64,000 bases of DNA from positions 161,278 to 225,277 of the forward strand of contig CAYZJA010000002.1 of NCBI GenBank assembly GCA_964479005.1, written 5' to 3'. Source of the stretch: an uncultured Candidatus Saccharibacteria bacterium (lineage in GTDB: Bacteria > Patescibacteriota > Minisyncoccia > UBA6257). Position 1 is the first letter of the stretch; every line of letters starts with the position of its first letter. Positions 8,075 through 64,000 of the stretch are shown here, in pieces. The notes beneath the pieces are model-generated. The model was not told the DNA's origin and searched no databases. It saw only the letters and a list, made by a program, of their open reading frames with translations. Made by a program: the position numbers and the translations under genes.

Positions 8075-8150
8075 ATATAAATTATATCACAGCATTATTA
8101 TTCTGTCATTTTTATTGTTTTTTCCTTAATGTTGAGATATACTAAATCTA

Positions 8151-8684
8151 ATGGGAGATTTCAAAAAGAGATTAATTTTAATTCTAAGCATTTCCCTATC
8201 TATCATTTTAGTCCTTGGTGGATTATTTTATTATTTTTACGATGATGTTTCGAAAAGAGTAGTAAAGATTAATTCCTACAGGCAGGAACTTGCTTCCCGA
8301 GCGTCAATTCTAAACAGGATTTATGTATTAGAACAAGAACATACAAAATCCTTGCCGTATTTTGGAAAATTGACAGAAGCTTTGCCAACTGAAACAGAAA
8401 TGGTTAACCTAGAAGAAGTTTTGAAAAATTTAGCCAGTCAAAATGATCTAAATTTAAGCTTTCGATTCGGACTGTTAAACGAAGCAACTGAACAAGAGCC
8501 AAAGAGTTATAGTTTCAATTTAATTCTTACAGGAGAGAAAAACAATGTTTTAAAATGGATGGATGGTTTGCAGAAATTAAATTATACAATTCGCGTGGAC
8601 CAAATAGAATTAAGCCAAACCAGTTCTGGCGGAGGCAAATTTTATTATAGTGTAAAAATTTTAGGAAGAGTTTATCTTCGTTGA
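8151..8684 (+). CDS. Hypothetical membrane-anchored protein (N-terminal TM, coiled coil, alpha/beta C-terminus). A PilO-like role is possible but unsupported
   Basis: One N-terminal hydrophobic helix and no recognisable catalytic motifs. Position between dprA and the tRNA pair. Confidence 0.4.
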   Translation: MGDFKKRLILILSISLSIILVLGGLFYYFYDDVSKRVVKINSYRQELASRASILNRIYVLEQEHTKSLPYFGKLTEALPTETEMVNLEEVLKNLASQNDLNLSFRFGLLNEATEQEPKSYSFNLILTGEKNNVLKWMDGLQKLNYTIRVDQIELSQTSSGGGKFYYSVKILGRVYLR

Positions 8685-8917: not shown

Positions 8918-8989
8918 GGGCGACTAGCTCAGTGGTAGAGCGCGTCTCTGATAAAGACGAGGTCACAAGTTCGATCCTTGTGTCGCCCA
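8918..8989 (+). tRNA. tRNA-Ile (anticodon GAT)
   Basis: Acceptor GGGCGAC/GTCGCCC, anticodon stem-loop CGTCT-CTGATAA-AGACG, T loop TTCGATC. This is the classical 16S-23S spacer tRNA. Confidence 0.9.
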
Positions 8990-9004
8990 CAATTTTCCTC
9001 CATC

Positions 9005-9080
9005 GGGCCCGTAGCTTAATTGGTAGAGCGCCTGTGTTGCATACAGGAGGTTGTCGGTTCGAGTCCGATCGGGTCCACCA
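9005..9080 (+). tRNA. tRNA-Ala (anticodon TGC) with G3:U70 identity pair and an encoded CCA
   Basis: Acceptor GGGCCCG/CGGGTCC includes the G3-U70 wobble. Anticodon stem-loop CCTGT-GTTGCAT-ACAGG. Ends ...ACCA. Confidence 0.9.
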
Positions 9081-9116
9081 CGTTAGACGTGGTCCACCAC
9101 GTTAAACGTGGTGGAC
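9076..9116 (+). repeat. Tandem palindromic hairpins (CCACG-TTAGA-CGTGG and TCCACCACG-TTAAA-CGTGGTGGA) abutting the tRNA-Ala 3' end; this family recurs at 62068, 62482 and 63473
   Basis: Perfect inverted repeats read directly from the sequence. The first stem includes the tRNA CCA. Confidence 0.7.
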
Positions 9117-9130
9117 TTCAAAATTTCTCC

Positions 9131-9159
9131 TTGCTTGACTAAGCTATATCTTATATAAT
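9131..9159 (+). promoter_or_regulatory. Sigma-70-like promoter (TTGCTT, 17 nt, TATAAT) for the 9212 gene
   Basis: -35 at 9131-9136 and a perfect -10 at 9154-9159, about 50 nt upstream of the start codon. Confidence 0.5.
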
Positions 9160-9211
9160 AGAAGTATAAAAATTAAAGGTCGATAAAACTAAAATTTAAA
9201 ATATAAAAAAT

Positions 9212-9895
9212 ATGTTTAATACTATAGCTCAAGCTAGTTCCACTGCTTTGTTTGATTTATGGAATGGATTCATTTTGTTTTTACCTACTTTAATAGGAGG
9301 GTTTATAGTTTTTATTGTAGGTGTAATAATTGGTAATGGTATTGCCCAATTAGTAGAGAAATTGATTGATCTCTTAAAAATTGATCCAATTTTGGAAAAG
9401 GTTGGATTTAAACAAGTTACTGATAAAGCTGGCATTCGTTTAGACGTAGGATTTTTTGTAGGTCAGATTGTCAAGTGGTTAATTATCCTGTCGTTCTTAG
9501 TGGCTGCTTGCAATATCTGGAATTTGTCAGCTGTTGGTGATTTTATCAGAAGCATAGTTAATTATCTTCCAAATGTTTTAGTCGCGATCTTGATTCTTTT
9601 AGCGGCTATTGTTTTGGGAGAATATTTTGCTAAGTTTGTCCGCGCTTCTGTCGCAGGAGCTGGATTAAAATATCAGCACTTTCTAAGCGGTGTATCCCGT
9701 TGGGTATTTGTTATATTTGGACTCATAGCAGCTTTATCTCAATTACAAGTTGCTCCTTATATTATCAATACCTTCTTTACGGGAATTGTGGCTATGATGG
9801 CAATAGCCGGAGGTTTGTCATTCGGTTTAGGAGGAAAAGATTTAGCACGTGAATTATTGGCAAAGTTGAAAGGAGATTTAGAAGGAGGAGAGTAA
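9212..9895 (+). CDS. Polytopic membrane protein with internally duplicated TM-helix repeats (MscS N-terminal 'conserved TM helix'-like). Inserted between the spacer tRNAs and the 23S
   Basis: 227 aa. Two homologous halves, each with GxxxG-rich hydrophobic helices (…LIGGFIVFIVGVIIGNGIAQLVEKLIDLL… and …LVAILILLAAIVLGEYFAKFVRASV…). Confidence 0.5.
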   Translation: MFNTIAQASSTALFDLWNGFILFLPTLIGGFIVFIVGVIIGNGIAQLVEKLIDLLKIDPILEKVGFKQVTDKAGIRLDVGFFVGQIVKWLIILSFLVAACNIWNLSAVGDFIRSIVNYLPNVLVAILILLAAIVLGEYFAKFVRASVAGAGLKYQHFLSGVSRWVFVIFGLIAALSQLQVAPYIINTFFTGIVAMMAIAGGLSFGLGGKDLARELLAKLKGDLEGGE

Positions 9896-9898
9896 GAC

Positions 9899-9926
9899 TT
9901 GACAAATTATTTTTCTTTGCTATAAT
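9899..9926 (+). promoter_or_regulatory. rRNA promoter P1 (TTGACA, 16 nt, TATAAT)
   Basis: Consensus hexamers read directly, about 400 nt upstream of the 23S. Confidence 0.6.
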
Positions 9927-9947
9927 GGAAGTGCTGTTGTCTTGAGG

Positions 9948-9965
9948 TATATAGCTTGCTATATA
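9948..9965. promoter_or_regulatory. Perfect 8-bp inverted repeat TATATAGC-TT-GCTATATA between rRNA promoters P1 and P2 (candidate operator)
   Basis: Exact palindrome read directly from the sequence. Confidence 0.35.
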
Positions 9966-10010
9966 TTAAAGGGCAGCAGCATTTTTTTATACACAAAACT
10001 CAATAAGGGG

Positions 10011-10038
10011 TTGACTTTTAAAAAATATTTACTATAAT
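10011..10038 (+). promoter_or_regulatory. rRNA promoter P2 (TTGACT, 16 nt, TATAAT)
   Basis: Consensus hexamers. Followed by the conserved leader box TTTTAATTGCAACGTTCTT (10053-10070), which also lies downstream of the 16S promoter. Confidence 0.6.
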
Positions 10039-10183
10039 TAAAATACTTCTATTTTAATTGCAACGTTCTTGATTTATAATCAGAAAGTTGCAATAATAAG
10101 AAGGCTGAATAAAATATGAAAATCTTTAAAGAAAACTCTCAGAAACAAAGAAGTTGGTAGGTGTATTACACACGTATTTTAAC

Positions 10184-10208
10184 GCCACCACTTCATGGTG
10201 GCTTTTTT
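10184..10208 (+). promoter_or_regulatory. Terminator-like hairpin in the 23S leader (GCCACCA-CTTCA-TGGTGGC plus T6), presumably bypassed by antitermination
   Basis: 7-bp GC-rich stem plus a U tract, inside the leader. A boxA-like AAATCTTTAAAGAAAA lies upstream at 10119-10135. Confidence 0.4.
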
Positions 10209-10852
10209 AATCCAAGATTTTCTGACAGAGAGTTCACAAGAGATGACTGAACTTTGAAAACGACTGTCTTTAGTTTGTCTTTTCACTAAAGATGGGAAAG
10301 TTGTATTAAGGGCAGATGGTGGATGCCTTGACACAGTAAGGCGATGAAGGACGCGGCGTAGCTGCGATAAGCCTCGGGAAGGTGCGTAGTAACCTTTGAT
10401 CCGGGGATTTCCGAATGGGGCAACCCATTCCGATTAATATCGGAATATCCTGATTTTAATAATTAGGAGGCGTACCTGGGGAAGTGAAACATCTCAGTAC
10501 CCAGAGGAAAAGAAAACAATAAAATACATTTTACTACTGTTGTTTAGTACTGAATAGTAGCTAAATGTATTTGTGATTCCTTGAGTAGCGGCGAGTGAAA
10601 GAGGAGAAGCCTAAACCAAGCATTCAATTTATTGAGTATTTGGGGTTATAAGGTGGATGCGCGGAAGCTTCGGCTTTCAAAATTTAAATCATAATTAATT
10701 AAATTATCTGGAAAGATAAACCACAGAGGGTGAAAGTCCCGTAGATGAAAATTATTATTGAATTTAGTATCTTTTCTTAATTACCTCGGGGACAGATAAC
10801 CTTGAGGGAAGGATCCGGAACTATACCGGAAAGGCTAAATACTTACTGTGAT

Positions 10853-10898
<46 letters not shown>

Positions 10899-12456
10899 GA
10901 GGGGAGTGAAATAGAACCTGAAACCATTTTGCCTACAAGCAATCGAAGTCGAGCACTCAGTTTTCTGAGTGCTGGATAACGGTGTGCCTATTGAAGAATG
11001 AGCCGACGAGTTTATATCTACTGCTTAGATTAATTTCGTAAATCGAAAGTAGTCATAGGGAAACCGAGTGTTAATAGCGCGTCATTAATTCTTCTTTTTA
11101 TCTCGGTTTTCGGGATAAAAAGATTAATTAAAATGTAGTGGATATGAGACCCGAAGCCAGGCGAGCTTGCCATGACCAGGATGAACCCCATAGAAATATG
11201 GGTGGAGGTCCGAACCCGTGAGCCGTTCAATACTCTGGGATGAGTTGTGGTAAGGAGTGAAAAGCTAATCGAGCCTGGGAATAGCTGGTTCTCCCCGAAA
11301 TAGCTTTAGGGCTAGCGGGCTATTTATCCTTATGGGGGTAGAGCACTGGATGGTGTGTATAGGGCGAAAGCTCAGCTCACCAATCAAACTCCGAATACCA
11401 TTAAGGTTATGATAGCCTAGTTAGACTATGGGGGCGAAGCTCCATGGTCAAAAGGCAACGAATCCAGATCGCAGTTTAAGGTCCCTAAATTTTGGTTAAG
11501 TGCTGTCAAAGGTAGTAATTTACCATAGACAATTAGTAGGTTGGCTTAGAGGTAGCCATCCTTTAAAGAGTGTGTAACAACTCACTATTCGATCTTGATC
11601 TTCGGATCAAGGTGGTAAATTGCGCCGAAAATGTATCGGGGCTAAAACCAAATACCGAAAACGCGAATTTATCCCAACTAAGGTTGGGGTGAGTGGTAGG
11701 GGAGCGTTTCTTAAGCATTGAAGTTCATAACGTGAGTTTGGATGGAGCTTAAGGAAGTGAGAATGTCGGCATGAGTAACCACAATCCTGATGAGAATTCA
11801 GGACTCCGTAAACCTAAGGTTTCTTTGGCAATGACAATCAGCCAAAGGTTAGGCGGTCCTAAGGCAATGGCGAAAGCTGCAGCCGATGGACAGCCGGTTA
11901 ATATTCCGGCCCTTCCATTTTTTTCGATGGGATGACGGAGTGTAGTAGATCGAGCATCTTAGTGGTCTGATGTCTTCGACCGAGAGTGTGTGTCAGGCAA
12001 ATCCGGCGCATGGTCCCGATTTATCGGGACAACTTTCAGGGTAGAAGCGAATTAAGGTTTTTCCTTAATAAGTTGATCGAGCGCACTTCCAAGAAAAATC
12101 TCTAAGAATAGGAAAATGGAATCCGTACCGTAAACCAACACAGGTAGGTGAGGCGAGTAGCCTCAGGAGAACGAGTGATTCCTCGTTAAGGAACTCGGCA
12201 AAAAAGCGGGCGTAACTTCGGGATAAGCCCTTCCTACCTAAATTTTGCTTGCAAAGTTTAGGCAGGGCGCAGCGAAAGTTTCCCTGGCGACTGTTTACCA
12301 AAAACACAGGTCCCTGCGAAACCGTAAGGTGATGTATAGGGGCTGATGCCTGTCCGATGCCAGAAGGTTAAGAGCGTCGGTCATTTCGATTTATCGGAAT
12401 GGCTAAGTGCTTGAAGCCCTGGTCAATGACAGCGATAACTATAATCGTTCTAAGGT

Positions 12457-13172
12457 GGGATACTGCCTTAGTAAAATTCGGCTATATGCTGGAACATCTG
12501 GTGTATCCAAGACTACTATGGTATAATATGACCATAAAAATATGAGTTATAATATACCAAGTAACAATGTTTTTGGCGCAGACAATCAGCAGGAAAGACT
12601 CAGAATTGCTTATTGGATTTTAGGCTTTACTGATGGTGAAGGATGTTTTTCAATTGCTGTGATAGAGAACAAAACTACTAAATTTGGGAAACAGATTTTT
12701 CCTGAATTTGTAATTACACAAGGAGAAAAAAGTTTAACTGCATTAAAGAAAATTAAAAAATTCTTTGGTTGCGGAAACATTTTTATCAACAAACGATATG
12801 ATAATCATAATGAGAACTTATATCGTTATTGTGTACGTTCTTTACATGACTTAGATAAGAAAATAATTCCGTTTTTTGAAAAATATCAACTCCAAACGTA
12901 TAAGCAAAATGATTTTTTAATTTTTAAAAAAGTCATAAAATTCATGATAAAGAAAGAACATTTAACTGAAAAAGGCAGAAAGAAAATTCTTGTCCTCCTC
13001 AGTAAAATGAACCATAGAAAAAAGCGATTTTGAGAATCCTCAGAGACTATATGCCGAACTCCAATATTATATTGGAGAAGATATAGTCCGAACTGCATAG
13101 CGATATGCAGAAATAAGCAGAAATGTTTATTCGACCTTTAGATTGATTTTCTAGAGGTTAGTAACAAAATTG
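12457..13172 (+). mobile_element. Group I intron in 23S at the L1931-equivalent site (between CCUAAGGU and AGCGUAAUUCC, helix 69/70 region)
   Basis: Exon homology breaks after ...CGTTCTAAGGT and resumes at AGCGTAATTCCTTGTCGGGTAA. The upstream exon ends in U and the intron ends in G. Encloses a LAGLIDADG ORF. Confidence 0.8.
12542..13033 (+). CDS. LAGLIDADG homing endonuclease (single-motif, homodimer type), encoded in intron 1
   Basis: 163 aa with motif LGFTDGEGCF near the N-terminus. Lies inside a 23S intron. Confidence 0.8.
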   Translation: MSYNIPSNNVFGADNQQERLRIAYWILGFTDGEGCFSIAVIENKTTKFGKQIFPEFVITQGEKSLTALKKIKKFFGCGNIFINKRYDNHNENLYRYCVRSLHDLDKKIIPFFEKYQLQTYKQNDFLIFKKVIKFMIKKEHLTEKGRKKILVLLSKMNHRKKRF

Positions 13173-13833
13173 AGCGTAATTCCTTGTCGGGTAATTTCCG
13201 ACGTGCATGAAAGGTATAACGACTGGGGAACTGTCTCAACGAGGAGCTCGGTGAAAATGCGTGTCCAGCGAAGACGCTGGGTACCCGCAGCAAGACGAAA
13301 AGACCCTAGAAGCTTTACTACAGCTTGGTATTGAATTTAGTTTTAATCTGCGTAGCGTAGCGGGGAGACTTTGAAGTTTCGCTTTCGGGCGAGATGGAGT
13401 CGCCAATGAAACACCCGTCTTTTTGAAGCTATGTTCTAATCCCGACGGCAAAAACGTCGTGAGACAGTGCCTGGTGGGTAGTTTTCGTGGGGCGCGATCC
13501 TCCTAAAGAGTAACGGAGGAGCCTACTAAGGTTGGCTATCTGCCAATGGAAACGGCAGAGGTAGTGTAAAGGCAAAAGCCAGCTTTATAGTGAGGGAGAC
13601 ATCCCAAACTATTGCGAAAGCAGAGCTTAGTGACCCGATACGTCATTGTAGAATGCGTAGAGACGTCGGATAAAAGCTACTCTAGGGATAACAGGCTGGT
13701 GGAGCCCGAAAGTTCATATCGACGGCTCCGCTCGGCACCTCGATGTCGGCTCATCTTATCCTGGGGCTGAAGAAGGTCCCAAGGGTTTGGCTGTTCGCCA
13801 ATTAAAAAGATACGCGAGCTGGGTTCAGACCGT

Positions 13834-14561
13834 CGATTTGGCGGCCTAGAAGAGTAATCTTCTATGGAAAAAGTTGACTCATATAGATGAAACCCTATTA
13901 CATAAATTGTATTTTAACCTGTCGTGTGGTAGGATAATATCTAGGGAAGTTTAACTTTTTTAAACGTGAAACATCTTTCAAAGACTCAATGTGCTTATAT
14001 CGCTGGGTTTTTAGATGGTGACGGAAGTCTTTATATTAGGATTAAACCTAATAAGGATTATCGGTTTAACTATCAAATAGCCCCCAATATAGTATTTTAT
14101 CAATCCCAAAAAGGATGGTTATTTCTTCAGAAAATTAAAAAAATGATTAGCGCTGGTTATATGAGAAAAAGAAATGACGGGATTGCAGAATATATTATTG
14201 GTGATGTAGCAACAATGTCTTCTTTGTTGAAGCAAATATCTTCATTTCTGATATTTAAAAAGAAACAAGCACAATTGTTTCTAAGAATTCTTCAAAAGAA
14301 AACAAAGGTAAAAACAAAAGAAGATTTTATAGCTTTAGCTATAATGATTGATAAATTGGAAAAATTAAATTATTCCAAAAAAAGGCGCATTACTTCGCAA
14401 GTTGTTATCAACACGTTAAAAAAGTTGTAACCCCTTAGAGACTTGTTCTGGTTTTTACCAGAACGGAATAGAGATTTTTAATCTCTATTAATACGTCAAC
14501 CTCCTAATAAAATATTAGGATGATGGTATAGTCCATACATAAAGTAATTTATGATTATATG
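13834..14561 (+). mobile_element. Group I intron in 23S at the L2593-equivalent site (I-CreI target: ...GACCGU^CGUGAGACAG, in the peptidyl-transferase loop)
   Basis: Exon ...GGGTTCAGACCGT | intron | CGTGAGACAGGTCGG. The junction U/G rule is satisfied with the intron ending ...ATATG. Encloses a LAGLIDADG ORF. Confidence 0.8.
13966..14430 (+). CDS. LAGLIDADG homing endonuclease (I-CreI-like size), encoded in intron 2
   Basis: 154 aa with motif IAGFLDGDGS at residues 11-20. Lies inside a 23S intron at the I-CreI homing site. Confidence 0.8.
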   Translation: MKHLSKTQCAYIAGFLDGDGSLYIRIKPNKDYRFNYQIAPNIVFYQSQKGWLFLQKIKKMISAGYMRKRNDGIAEYIIGDVATMSSLLKQISSFLIFKKKQAQLFLRILQKKTKVKTKEDFIALAIMIDKLEKLNYSKKRRITSQVVINTLKKL

Positions 14562-14703
14562 CGTGAGACAGGTCGGCCTCTATCTGCTGTGGGCGTTCGA
14601 TACTTGAGGAGAGCTGATCGCAGTACGAGAGGACCCGATTGGACGAACCTCTGGTCTACCGGTTGTCCTGCCAAGGGCATCGCCGGGTAGCTATGTTCGG
14701 AAG

Positions 14704-14736
<33 letters not shown>

Positions 14737-14898
14737 CACTCCAAGATTAGGTATCGTTTCCCATTTATGGGAGTGAGATTCCTGGAAGATGACCAGGTTG
14801 ATAGGCTCTAGGTGGAAGTCCAGTAATGGATTAAGCCGAGGAGTACTAATTATCAAAGCAACTTTCCTATCTTTAGTGAAAAGAAATATTTTAAAATT

Positions 14899-15008
14899 CC
14901 GCTGGTGTTTTACTTAATTATGGTCCACCTCTTCCCATTCCGAACAGAGAAGTGAAAGTAATTAAGCCCGATGATACTCTTTTGGGGAAAGTAGGGTATG
15001 CCAGCGGT
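14899..15008 (+). rRNA. rrf: 5S ribosomal RNA
   Basis: Helix I CCGCTGGTG...GCCAGCGG, loop motifs CCGAACAGAGAAGTGAAAG and GGGAAAGTAGGGTATGCC. Sits 38 nt after the 23S 3' end. Confidence 0.85.
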
Positions 15009-15019
15009 TTTTTATTTTT

Positions 15020-15149
15020 AAATAAGTATTTCCCCCTTCTCTCCTGCATTCCAGCAGAGACAAACAATATTCACTCGCTCTGGAAGCCTTCCGGAATTTG
15101 TTTGTATCTCTGCTTCCATTAATGTCGTTCAGGAGCAAATACTTATTTA
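15020..15149. other. About 130-nt extended imperfect hairpin directly after the 5S: outer arms AAATAAGTATTT/AAATACTTATTT, then CTCCTG/CAGGAG, then AGCAGAGACAAACAA/TTGTTTGTATCTCTGCT
   Basis: Nested inverted repeats read directly. Followed at 15194-15212 by a second copy of the 5S 3' tail plus U-tract (ACCAGCGGTTTTTTTATTT). Confidence 0.5.
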
Positions 15150-15245
15150 TCTTAATATGTTATTGGTTTAAAAATTAAAAATTGGAAATTTAAAATTATA
15201 CCAGCGGTTTTTTTATTTGTATTTCTTATGATATAATAGCTAACA

Positions 15246-61997: not shown

Positions 61998-62071
61998 CGC
62001 GGGGTGGAGAAGTAGTATCTCACGAGGCCCATAACCTCGAGACGCTGGTGCAATTCCAGCCCCCGCAACCA
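61998..62071 (+). tRNA. tRNA-Met (anticodon CAT), probably the initiator tRNA(fMet): C1 x A72 mismatch, encoded CCA, anticodon loop CCCAUAA (C33)
   Basis: Acceptor CGCGGGG/CCCCGCA with position 1 unpaired (C-A). D stem GAGA/TCTC. Anticodon stem-loop CGAGG-CCCATAA-CCTCG. T stem GCTGG/CCAGC. Ends A-CCA. Confidence 0.75.
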
Positions 62072-62105
62072 CGTTAAACGTGGTTAAGGCACGTTTTACG
62101 TGCCA
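62068..62105 (+). repeat. Tandem palindromic hairpins ACCACG-TTAAA-CGTGGT and GGCACG-TTTTA-CGTGCC overlapping the tRNA-Met CCA end
   Basis: Perfect 6-bp stems. Same family as 9076-9116, 62482-62518 and 63473-63495. Confidence 0.7.
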
Positions 62106-62125
62106 ACCATTTAGCCCCATCGTTT

Positions 62126-62395
62126 ATGTTTTATATTTATATTTTGTACAGCGAAAAAGATAAAAAACTTTATACAGGTTTTGCAGGTGATTTACGAAAA
62201 AGAATAACAAAGCACAAAAAAGGATTTGTGAAAAGCACTAAAGATCGTCGACCATTAAATCTGATTCATTACGAAGCATTTATTAATGAAAGTGATGCTA
62301 AGCGAAGAGAAATATTTTTAAAAAGTGGGTATGGGGAAAAAGAAATTGCTATATTGTTACAAAATTATTTTCAATCAAATTATTGGAATAAATAA
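62126..62395 (+). CDS. Small GIY-YIG nuclease superfamily protein (YhbQ/UPF0213-like)
   Basis: MFYIYILYSEKDKKLYTGFAGDLRKRITKHKKG… (GIY…YTG…R…H). 89 aa, embedded in the tRNA cluster. Confidence 0.7.
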   Translation: MFYIYILYSEKDKKLYTGFAGDLRKRITKHKKGFVKSTKDRRPLNLIHYEAFINESDAKRREIFLKSGYGEKEIAILLQNYFQSNYWNK

Positions 62396-62407
62396 TTAAA
62401 AATATTT

Positions 62408-62481
62408 GCCAGGGTAGCTCAGTCGGTTAGAGCATAGCACTCATAAAGCTAAGGTCGTGGGTTCAATTCCCACCCCTGGCA
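62408..62481 (+). tRNA. tRNA with CAT anticodon and a G1-C72 acceptor: elongator tRNA-Met or lysidine-modified tRNA-Ile2; no encoded CCA
   Basis: Acceptor GCCAGGG/CCCTGGC. D arm GCTC-AGTCGGTTA-GAGC. Anticodon stem-loop TAGCA-CTCATAA-AGCTA (A31 x A39). T arm GTGGG-TTCAATT-CCCAC. Confidence 0.8.
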
Positions 62482-62518
62482 CACCGTTAAACGGTGTTGA
62501 GGCACGTTTGACGTGCCA
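62482..62518 (+). repeat. Tandem palindromic hairpins CACCG-TTAAA-CGGTG and GGCACG-TTTGA-CGTGCC directly after the tRNA discriminator base
   Basis: Perfect stems read directly. Confidence 0.7.
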
Positions 62519-63456: not shown

Positions 63457-63472
63457 GATTATAAAATTCGGT

Positions 63473-63495
63473 TGACCACGTTAAACGTGGTTGAC
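63473..63495. repeat. Fourth copy of the CCACG-TTAAA-CGTGG palindrome, overlapping the -35 region of the 16S promoter
   Basis: GACCACG-TTAAA-CGTGGTTGAC. Perfect palindrome core. Confidence 0.65.
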
Positions 63496-63518
63496 AAACA
63501 GAATTTTTCCTTTATAAT
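63491..63518 (+). promoter_or_regulatory. 16S rRNA promoter (TTGACA, 16 nt, TATAAT). Followed by a 15-bp perfect inverted repeat (63521-63555), the conserved leader box TTTTAATTTCAACGTTCTC (63553-63570) and a boxA-like TGCTCTTTGATAATTTA (63619-63635)
   Basis: Consensus hexamers read directly. The leader box is 18 of 19 identical to the one downstream of 23S promoter P2. boxA resembles E. coli TGCTCTTTAACAATTTA. Confidence 0.6.
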
Positions 63519-63679
63519 TAAAACACGTTTATTTTAAGGTAAATAAACGTGTTTTAATTTCAACGTTCTCGAGCGAAGCGAGAGGTTGTTATAATATCTA
63601 TTACCTTACTTTATAAGGTGCTCTTTGATAATTTAATAGTTAATAAGTTCAATCTTTTCTGGTTATTCCAAGATCTTAA

Positions 63680-64000
63680 ATGAGGATTTGATCCTGGTCC
63701 AGGATGAACGCTAGCGGTGTGGATAAGGCATACAAGTCGTACGATTCCGATTTATCGGAATAGTGGCAAACGGGTTAGTAATACCTTGGTAACTTACCGT
63801 CAAGATGGGGATAGTTCGTTGAAAGACGAAGTAATACCCAATAGTTCCCAATTTTCTATGAAGATTGGGATAAAGGAGCAATCCGCTTGATGATAGACCT
63901 AGGTCCTATCAGCTTGTTGGTGAGGTAACTGCTCACCAAGGCTATGACGGGTAGGGGGTGTGAGAGCATGGCCCCCAACAAGGGCACTGAGACACGGGCC
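63680..64000 (+). rRNA. rrs: 16S ribosomal RNA, 5' portion (continues beyond the window); not linked to the 23S-5S unit
   Basis: GGATTTGATCCTGGTCCAGGATGAACGCTAGCGG…, the 5' end of the 16S. Ends …CACTGAGACACGGGCC (the 315-330 region). Confidence 0.9.

Follow-up and report, generated by a model that had tools for sequence, protein, structure and literature searches.

Rickettsia palindromic elements (RPEs) insert in frame into protein genes, and in or next to stable RNA genes, of a reduced genome. To our knowledge, RPEs are not phased to the ends of transfer RNAs (tRNAs) and have no nuclease partner. Among mitochondrial repeats, the PstI palindromes of Neurospora reportedly flank tRNA genes, which is attributed to Yin et al. 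in 1981, and the double-hairpin elements (DHEs) of Allomyces are said to go back to Paquin et al. in 2000. DHEs are mentioned in PMC7218506 and RPEs in PMC1779305, and a link of mitochondrial GC clusters to mobile endonuclease genes has been proposed (PMC4478555). The segB gene of phage T4 encodes a free-standing GIY-YIG homing endonuclease and lies among tRNA genes as a selfish insert (PMC2330249). Here, a family of short palindromes was analyzed in a stretch of 64,000 nucleotides (nt) of contig CAYZJA010000002.1 (the window), in which the palindromes adjoin tRNA genes and the promoter of the 16S ribosomal RNA (rRNA) gene. On balance, sequence comparison favors the view that they are copies of a dispersed, insertion-competent double-hairpin DNA repeat of Paceibacteria/Parcubacteria genomes within the candidate phyla radiation (CPR), and not terminators or operators.

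Structure and occurrence of the repeat unit

The window is AT-rich (approximately 31% GC) and harbors seven perfect palindromes at four non-coding loci, all on the plus strand, which is the strand of the tRNA and rRNA genes. None of the long open reading frames (ORFs) of the window contains any of the seven palindromes. The sequence CACGTTNNACGTG occurs at six sites in the window (0.00 expected from 100 shuffles) and GGCACGTTTNACGTGCC at two (0 expected). A preliminary description made from the sequence of the window had listed seven palindromes at four loci and had assigned the adjoining tRNAs to alanine, initiator methionine and a second CAT tRNA. All seven were recovered, and the tRNA calls agree. 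Its account of the palindromes as stem-loops requires modification: the palindromes are perfect, but the supposed loop T-T-N-A-A is itself palindromic, so that the whole unit is a perfect palindrome of odd length.

The unit is a 17-bp palindrome, N4-CGTT-N-AACG-N4', which mostly occurs in tandem pairs. When metagenomes were scanned for two units in tandem (CGTTARACG, 7-10 nt, CACGTTNNACGTG), at least 81 loci with a total of 520 kb were matched. Nearly all of these loci have a GC content of 31-38%, and long contigs gave several matches each. The protein names on these contigs point to Paceibacteria/Parcubacteria/Minisyncoccia. As a negative control, 1.33 Mb of unrelated bacterial loci were fetched via GatA (best match 56% identical; matches crossed phyla), and no hairpins of the family were found in them.

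Cores of the form CG-T.N.A-CG were analyzed irrespective of their flanks. In 584 kb, 198 of 241 cores are extended by at least three further complementary bases, with a mode of exactly four, compared with 3 of 139 in the control loci, where the numbers fall off as by chance (104, 27, 5, 3). The 116 unique cores show Watson-Crick pairing at arm positions 1-4 in 91, 94, 89 and 78% of cases, respectively, with three to four pair types at each position. Positions 5-8 beyond the arms are paired in 18-38%, or about 25% overall. Conservation is limited to the apex CGTT-N-AACG, and the sequence outside the 4-bp arms is random. The combination of a constant 9-nt center with free, GC-rich yet complementary arms indicates that the conserved object is the 17-bp palindrome. 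The spacer between paired cores measures 11 nt in 45 and 12 nt in 16 of 72 pairs. The centers of a pair are 20-21 bp apart and its units 3-4 nt apart, and arms and spacers differ among copies and match the local flanks. In RNA, the palindromes are predicted to fold with -20 to -34 kcal/mol (z-scores of -2.5 to -8.4) and to sequester tRNA nucleotides 73-76. Rfam searches at gathering and relaxed thresholds placed no family on the hairpins, and no description of these elements was found in full-text literature searches.

Empty and filled orthologous sites

Orthologous sites with and without a copy were found in a protein gene and in a tRNA cluster. A conserved membrane-protein gene between dnaK and dnaJ holds a pair, translated as GALNAPRPTLNVG, in the alleles P0001 and P0009, the latter of which is present on 28 contigs. 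Orthologues with 87% identity lack the GALNAPRPTLNVG insert. In the DNA alignment the empty genes read ...TTTGGGGGAACA... and the filled gene reads ...TTGGGGG[TGCGTTAGACGCACCTAGACCCACGTTAAACGTGGGAGG]AACG..., that is, 39 nt are inserted in frame and flanked on either side by GGRGG. A LigT-like ORF in L187 (comparison loci carry L numbers) also has an in-frame pair, which is read on the other strand. The spacer from the initiator tRNA-Met (tRNA-fMet) to the next tRNA-Met is empty in L197, where it has 16 nt, no hairpin and no ORF. In the window, L232 and L225 a pair and a GIY-YIG ORF fill this spacer, and in L217 it contains a pair fused to a half-deleted GIY-YIG gene.

The flanks of the inserts were compared for direct repeats. 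For 53 isolated unique pairs the mean longest match between the flanks is 4.57 nt, compared with 3.15 +/- 0.15 nt in permuted controls. At tRNAs, the repeat is the tRNA's own 3' end, as in AACCA...AACCA in the window and CCGACCA in L230. This repeat co-varies in orthologues: both copies read CAACCC in L232, in which nt 76 is C, and the repeat of L225 co-varies likewise. The flank repeats and the alignment of empty with filled sites match the target-site duplication by which miniature inverted-repeat transposable elements (MITEs) and other non-autonomous transposons are recognized.

Several features of the relatives were observed alongside. The deletion of the 5' half of the GIY-YIG gene in L217 (1459-1480) ends exactly within the core of the second hairpin, where ...CACGTTTAACG is joined to ATTTGTG..., and hints at the core as a hot spot of breakage or recombination. 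Some pairs (L185 at about 8150-8205, L223 and L186) are preceded by an apparent tRNA 3' half, consisting of the T-arm and the 3' strand of the acceptor stem ending in CCACCA, which was not called by ARAGORN. This suggests that pieces of tRNA genes travel with the element. A second GC-rich repeat family with CTCGGC/GCTCGG motifs follows several tRNAs without double hairpins (L178, L179, L199, L211). It also forms two in-frame insertions of 25 amino acids (NPST.LRIGHSAELSRSHGEQSRTI) in P0009 (L179, residues ~50-110), the membrane protein that bears the hairpins.

Phasing of the palindromes to tRNA and rRNA genes

In the motif-enriched loci, a core abuts 19 of 82 unique tRNAs. The core begins exactly 3 nt past the discriminator in 16 of these 19, as counted after correction of two off-by-one acceptor calls, so that the palindrome starts at nt 73. 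The association with tRNA 3' ends that the preliminary description had noted is therefore sharper than claimed. The same phase was found at a transfer-messenger RNA (tmRNA; L266) and at a tRNA-Lys (L276), where the loops differ (TCATA and TCAAA, respectively). In a further lineage with CTNAG loops the core starts 4 nt past the discriminator, i.e. one base later. Nucleotides 74-76 of the hairpin-bearing tRNAs read CCA in eight cases and mostly CAC, CCC or CTG in the rest. Of the 63 hairpin-free tRNAs, just 11 encode CCA.

Within the window, three of the seven tRNA genes carry hairpins, each time as a pair. At tRNA-Ala (9005-9080, plus strand), the 5' arm of the 17-bp palindrome ACCACG-TTAGA-CGTGGT (9077-9093, plus strand) is formed by the discriminator A73 and the CCA of the tRNA. 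The second palindrome, GTCCACCACG-TTAAA-CGTGGTGGAC (25 bp; 9092-9116, plus strand), directly repeats the tRNA-Ala 3' end (GTCCACCA) in its 5' arm and has a 10-bp stem that re-uses this duplicated end. The two units can fold together as one nested hairpin, with a predicted energy of -33.6 kcal/mol, which would compete with the acceptor stem.

At the initiator tRNA-Met (61998-62071, plus strand), AACCACG-TTAAA-CGTGGTT (62067-62085, plus strand) includes A72, A73 and CCA of the tRNA in its 5' arm and is followed by GGCACG-TTTTA-CGTGCC (62088-62104, plus strand). AACCA, the 3' end of this tRNA (62067-62071), is repeated directly at 62105-62109 (plus strand), and the two copies enclose both hairpins in the manner of a target-site duplication. 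At the second CAT tRNA (62408-62482, plus strand), ACACCG-TTAAA-CGGTGT (62481-62497, plus strand) starts from the discriminator and is followed by GGCACG-TTTGA-CGTGCC (62501-62517, plus strand). The start of tRNA-Asp (62525) lies 7 nt beyond this second palindrome. Two generalizations of the preliminary description thus hold in part. Two of the three pairs have the GGCACG variant as their second hairpin, with the 10-bp stem in its place at tRNA-Ala, and an encoded CCA is included in the hairpin at tRNA-Ala and tRNA-fMet, while the second CAT tRNA has CAC at positions 74-76.

The fourth locus holds a single palindrome, ACCACG-TTAAA-CGTGGT (63475-63491, plus strand), 19 nt past the stop codon of a DUF3795 ORF. 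A direct repeat of GGTTGAC brackets it (63470-63476 and 63489-63495), and the second copy includes TTGAC, the first five bases of the -35 hexamer of the 16S gene. The 16S promoter itself, TTGACA-16-TATAAT (63491-63518, plus strand), matches the consensus at 12 of 12 positions and lies outside the repeat family. The overlap of palindrome and -35 box that had been pointed out amounts to one base, the first position of TTGACA. Among the fetched loci there was no orthologous 16S promoter without a palindrome. Just past the window (L090 13279-13295), the 3' foot of the processing stem of 16S bears an eighth copy, ACCCCG-TTAAA-CGGGGT, directly 3' of the sequence that pairs with the 16S 5' flank. This copy is followed after about 10 nt by an ordinary hairpin with a T-tract.

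Copies in the relatives also occupy other positions. They overlap tRNA 5' ends in L189 and L207 and lie in 5' leaders just downstream of promoter-like sequences in L210 and L224. Pairs occur between adjacent tRNAs, with 7-12 further nucleotides, from the second CAT tRNA to tRNA-Asp in the window (7 nt), from Ile to Ala in L178 and from Tyr to Thr in L186. In the same tRNA cluster, the pair follows Ile in L178 and Ala in the window. Arrays of at least three pairs occur as well, some with no stable RNA nearby. In the array of L254, the stop codon of the gene for ribosomal protein S9 falls in the first core.

A small GIY-YIG gene beside the hairpins

An ORF for a GIY-YIG protein of 89 amino acids (62126-62395, plus strand; PF01541, 1.2e-13) starts 21 nt after the hairpin pair of tRNA-fMet. 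The protein consists of the GIY-YIG catalytic domain alone, and its closest solved relatives are UPF0213 proteins. Against TIGR01453 it scores 21 bits, with a cut-off of 56 bits. When it was used as a tblastn query in the motif-selected loci, seven of eight matches lay at most 400 bp from hairpins. For a less biased sample, six homologues with 54-61% identity were picked by protein search alone and their contigs fetched. Five of these six contexts show the same arrangement: a tRNA or tmRNA is followed by one or more hairpins from nt 73 and then, 20-120 nt downstream on the same strand, by the GIY-YIG gene. The RNA gene is an intron-containing tRNA in L264, a tmRNA in L266, a tRNA-His with GIY-YIG genes on both sides in L272, a tmRNA-like 3' end beside smpB in L273 and a tRNA-Lys in L276. 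This arrangement was not seen in L284, the sixth context. The window is a further case of the tRNA-hairpin-GIY-YIG module. By analogy, the module and the empty, filled and decaying states of the fMet spacer resemble the life cycle of a free-standing homing-endonuclease gene.

Proposed mode of spread

If the palindromes are copies of an insertion-competent repeat, the element would be gained and lost at the DNA level, leaving orthologous sites with and without a copy. Its inserts would be bracketed by direct repeats of 4-9 nt of the target, and their outer arm bases would be taken from, or matched to, the flanking sequence. The favored target would be the 3' boundary of tRNA and tmRNA genes, where the palindrome starts from nt 73 and the terminal tRNA bases are repeated after the pair. 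Other positions would tolerate a copy as well, namely the 5' ends of tRNA genes, the foot of the 16S processing stem, leaders and in-frame coding sites. Insertion would be driven by a trans-acting nuclease, for which we infer that the small GIY-YIG protein (62126-62395 in the window) is the best candidate. Solo pairs would then represent spread copies or relics of cassettes of hairpins and GIY-YIG gene. In transcripts of the window, the units would fold as stable stem-loops that are lost with the tRNA trailers and read through, with no regulator binding to them. Since the hairpins fold in RNA and sequester nucleotides 73-76, a secondary, co-opted role in processing or as an insulator is possible.

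Several points weigh against this explanation. The mobility of the hairpin element is deduced from presence or absence of copies and from flanking repeats. The copies do not share the fixed sequence of classical MITEs, as only 9 nt are constant, which means that the arms are either re-templated locally or evolving under a pairing constraint. At the fMet locus, pairs persist with compensatory arm changes across genomes whose GIY-YIG proteins are 61-88% identical, and this persistence could result from selection for function. The phasing to nt 73 is set by the mature RNA end, which an RNA-level function would explain naturally, and it constitutes the strongest argument for some RNA- or structure-level logic. 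The GIY-YIG gene is absent near most pairs, and the 89-amino-acid protein has no recognizable DNA-binding domain. In addition, the related loci were fetched by the motif itself, and the frequencies of the contexts are therefore biased. No copy was present in approximately 35 kb of unbiased sequence from relatives (L259-L263), which indicates a low copy density outside hot spots.

A more specific, less probable version of spread by insertion can be put forward tentatively. Hairpins and small GIY-YIG protein may form a two-part mobile system that homes to the tRNA 3' boundary, a counterpart of repetitive extragenic palindromic (REP) sequences and their REP-associated tyrosine transposases (RAYTs) that is based on a structure-specific nuclease of the GIY-YIG type. 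This enzyme would cleave DNA where extruded stems have their foot, such as at the acceptor stem of tRNA or tmRNA (nt 72/73-76) or the base of the processing stem of 16S. In the course of repair, a pair of hairpins would be put in place whose arms are templated by the broken end, and the nuclease gene might or might not come along.

Alternative explanations

It is doubtful, although several lines of evidence are in its favor, that the hairpins are primarily a selected RNA element. They would then be trailer or leader structures that pair nucleotides 73-76 of pre-tRNAs, or the foot of the rRNA processing stem, and guide or protect 3' processing, and their spread would be secondary. Variants of this explanation are a stop for exonucleases, a determinant for RNase Z or RNase P, and an insulator that separates the tRNA from the GIY-YIG mRNA downstream of it. 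It agrees with the start of the palindrome at the discriminator in 16 of 19 tRNAs, and in the same phase in lineages with other loops, with copies directly beside tRNA 5' ends and beside the 16S processing stem, and with the stability of the predicted folds. The arms also co-vary with the individual tRNA sequence and are kept across diverged orthologous loci. However, hairpins are present at just three of the seven tRNAs of the window and are missing from 63 of 82 in the motif-enriched loci, and the tRNA of a given cluster after which the pair stands differs among relatives (Ile in L178, Ala in the window). Identical units occur in frame in proteins, in 5' leaders and in arrays without a nearby stable RNA, and no Rfam family matches. 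Nor are G-T pairs favored in the defective arms, which contain five G-T, nine A-C and 12 other mismatches, a small sample (n=26) in which the orientation of the transcript is not known. With nucleotides 74-76 often differing from CCA, the same observations speak against a signal that masks the CCA in the precursor, as proposed in the preliminary description, as the defining role of the hairpins.

A palindromic operator, also suggested there, is very improbable. A dimeric regulator or a roadblock protein would bind CGTT-N-AACG at sites two helical turns apart and couple the expression of tRNA and rRNA genes. The strict 9-bp core, the distance of 20-21 bp between tandem sites, the copy that touches the 16S -35 box and the position of some copies just downstream of promoters are consistent with such a role. 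Recognition of a duplex does not, however, require that pairing extends exactly 4 bp past the core by many different base pairs: only the core is conserved, and the outer four positions vary yet pair. Moreover, most copies lie outside promoters, some of them in coding regions and between promoterless tRNAs, and the copy at the 16S promoter, between its GGTTGAC repeats, looks like a target-duplicating insertion. Some support for an operator comes from two unrelated AT-rich phage contigs that contain ACCACGT-N3-ACGTGGT in the spacer of a consensus promoter beside a small helix-turn-helix (HTH) gene, but no regulator was identified and the phage HTH protein has no homologue in the window.

In these phage contigs, ACCACGT-N3-ACGTGGT exactly fills the 17-bp spacer between TTGACA and TATAAT (L023 7603-7619 and 9480-9496; L032 687-703), and each contig encodes a small XRE-like HTH protein (...IPIRTxEDWD...). 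The phage palindromes were treated as unrelated to the CPR repeats since the HTH protein has no window homologue, and they probably represent a phage operator. In a viral scan with ACCACGTTNNACGTGGT, nearly all matches were GC-rich, coding and chance-like, and the tandem pattern was found in only two viral contigs, with 44-46% GC, apparently by coincidence.

It is highly improbable as well that the hairpins act without a U-tract as intrinsic terminators or pause sites peculiar to the lineage. Stable GC-rich hairpins at gene 3' ends of an AT-rich genome would suit such a role, and in a few relatives the second hairpin is followed by a T-tract (e.g. after tRNA-Val in L199). In the window, however, no T-tract follows any of the seven copies, as already recognized in the preliminary description, and none of them was called in a terminator scan. 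Pairs stand between tRNAs that must be co-transcribed, with tRNA-Asp 7 nt after the pair and no room for a promoter (likewise in L178 and L186), copies occur within ORFs and 5' leaders, and the genome has ordinary terminators of hairpin and T-tract at the 5S end, at 10184-10202 and just past the 16S-distal copy.

Other features of the window

Two further hairpins were considered as family members and rejected. The first, a long hairpin (63521-63557), has CACGTTTA in common with the palindromes and is a boxB-like part of the rRNA leader, of which three occurrences with different stems were found. The same leader follows three promoters (63516-63600, 10033-10110 and L090 13350-13440) and consists of the -10 box, a variable AT-rich hairpin, TTTTAATTTCAACGTTCTTGA and GAGAGGTTGTTATAAT. 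It looks like an antitermination leader of the boxB/boxA type. The third copy (L090 13350-13440) precedes a response-regulator gene and not an rRNA gene. The second candidate, TTAAAAAATACGGAGG-TTAGA-CCTCCGTATTTTTTAA at positions 1-37 of the window, was discarded as its closing pair is not CG. Its 16-bp stem has A- and T-tracts on both sides, and it looks like an ordinary bidirectional terminator with a coincidental TTAGA loop.

The rRNA genes of the window are unlinked (23S at 10296-13864, 5S at 14900-15007, start of 16S at 63676), and about 50 kb separate 16S from 23S-5S (8918-15007 and 63676-64000). The genes for tRNA-Ile and tRNA-Ala lie upstream of 23S with no 16S gene before them, and a gene for an MscS-like membrane protein of 227 amino acids (9212-9895) is located between tRNA-Ala and 23S. 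Some 95 nt ahead of the mature 5' end of 23S, its leader contains the hairpin GCCACCA-CTTCA-TGGTGGC and then TTTTTT (10184-10202), with a stem like a tRNA 3' end (GCCACCA). This terminator-like signal falls inside an rRNA operon. At about 15201-15220 the 3' end and T-tract of 5S (GCCAGCGGTTTTTTATTT) recur (ACCAGCGGTTTTTTTATTT), and the approximately 180 nt in between contain inverted repeats (15000-15215). The region may represent a further small RNA or what is left of a duplication.

The 16S and the 23S gene each contain an interruption. For 23S, the match extends over 3.57 kb, and in the region 13864-14560 more 23S-like sequence is found after an insert that encodes an ORF of 154 amino acids (13966-14430). 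The 16S gene carries an ORF with a LAGLIDADG_2 match (L090 12366-12989), and by analogy with 16S only the 154-amino-acid ORF is suspected to be a homing-endonuclease candidate. The plus strand holds nearly all genes, and the GC skew is about +0.18 across the whole window. For a Microgenomates genome, an unusual disparity of strand composition is reported (PMC7143001).

Comparison with known systems

If the palindromes are an insertion-competent repeat, Paceibacteria genomes of approximately 0.5 Mb would support active miniature palindromic elements that are placed with single-base precision at tRNA and tmRNA ends and can lengthen proteins in frame. They would provide a bacterial counterpart, tractable by metagenomics, to the question of how mitochondrial GC clusters move, and the widespread GIY-YIG proteins that consist of one domain (UPF0213-like) would be candidates for a role in this mobility. 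Annotators would be warned not to take hairpins at the ends of stable RNAs in CPR genomes for terminators, operators or encoded CCA tails. If in addition the two-part system exists, it would represent a new class of elements homing to the tRNA 3' boundary in CPR bacteria and a mechanistic model for the spread of GC clusters.

Of the GIY-YIG homing-endonuclease features that were considered, the catalytic domain is present in the 89-amino-acid protein and an extra DNA-binding domain is not. Its gene resembles segB in being surrounded by tRNA genes and in behaving like a selfish insert. Enzymes of the SegB type have a C-terminal DNA-binding region, whereas the 89-amino-acid protein comprises the catalytic domain only and is UPF0213/YhbQ-like. 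No hairpin repeats are described for Seg genes, in contrast to the GIY-YIG modules found here.

REP sequences and bacterial interspersed mosaic elements with their RAYTs (REPINs) share with the CPR repeats a high copy number of palindromes, frequent pairing, compensatory stems and a nuclease gene adjoining the repeats. They differ in several respects. REPs are extragenic imperfect palindromes of 20-40 nt, whereas the CPR unit is a perfect 17-bp palindrome that is multi-copy and also occurs in ORFs. REPs have a GTAG-like tetranucleotide at the 5' foot of the stem; this is absent from the CPR repeats, whose conserved part is the apex of the hairpin. The partner of REPs is a RAYT of the IS200/IS605 Y1 type; none was seen beside the CPR repeats, for which no systematic Y1 search was made, and the recurrent neighbor is GIY-YIG. 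REP doublets are inverted, whereas the CPR pairs are direct neighbors 3-4 nt apart. Copies of a MITE have in common an internal sequence and terminal inverted repeats that stem from an autonomous element, whereas the CPR repeats share their 9-nt cores only. As the family lacks the defining sequence features of both REPs and classical MITEs, it is placed as a variant apart from both.

RPEs are, like the CPR repeats, palindromic and found in frame in protein genes and next to stable RNA genes. Unlike the CPR repeats, they measure 100-150 bp with sequence conserved over the full length. In behavior, REP/RAYT and RPEs are the next closest systems, and the palindromic GC clusters and DHEs of fungal mitochondria (yeast, Neurospora PstI palindromes, Allomyces DHEs) are the closest. 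The mitochondrial elements and the CPR repeats alike are short GC-rich palindromes or double hairpins, scattered through compact, AT-rich genomes and clustered near tRNA and rRNA genes. In both, a copy may be there in one relative and missing in another, and both show putative short target duplications, structure-conserved stems, arrays, occasional in-frame insertion and a suspected dependence on endonucleases. The CPR repeats thus show the characters of this class, which is a likeness in behavior and does not imply common descent. They differ from GC clusters in being bacterial rather than organellar, in their shorter and stricter unit of 17 bp with an invariant 9-nt center, in the single-base phasing to nt 73 and in their candidate partner, a free-standing GIY-YIG protein that consists of the catalytic domain only.

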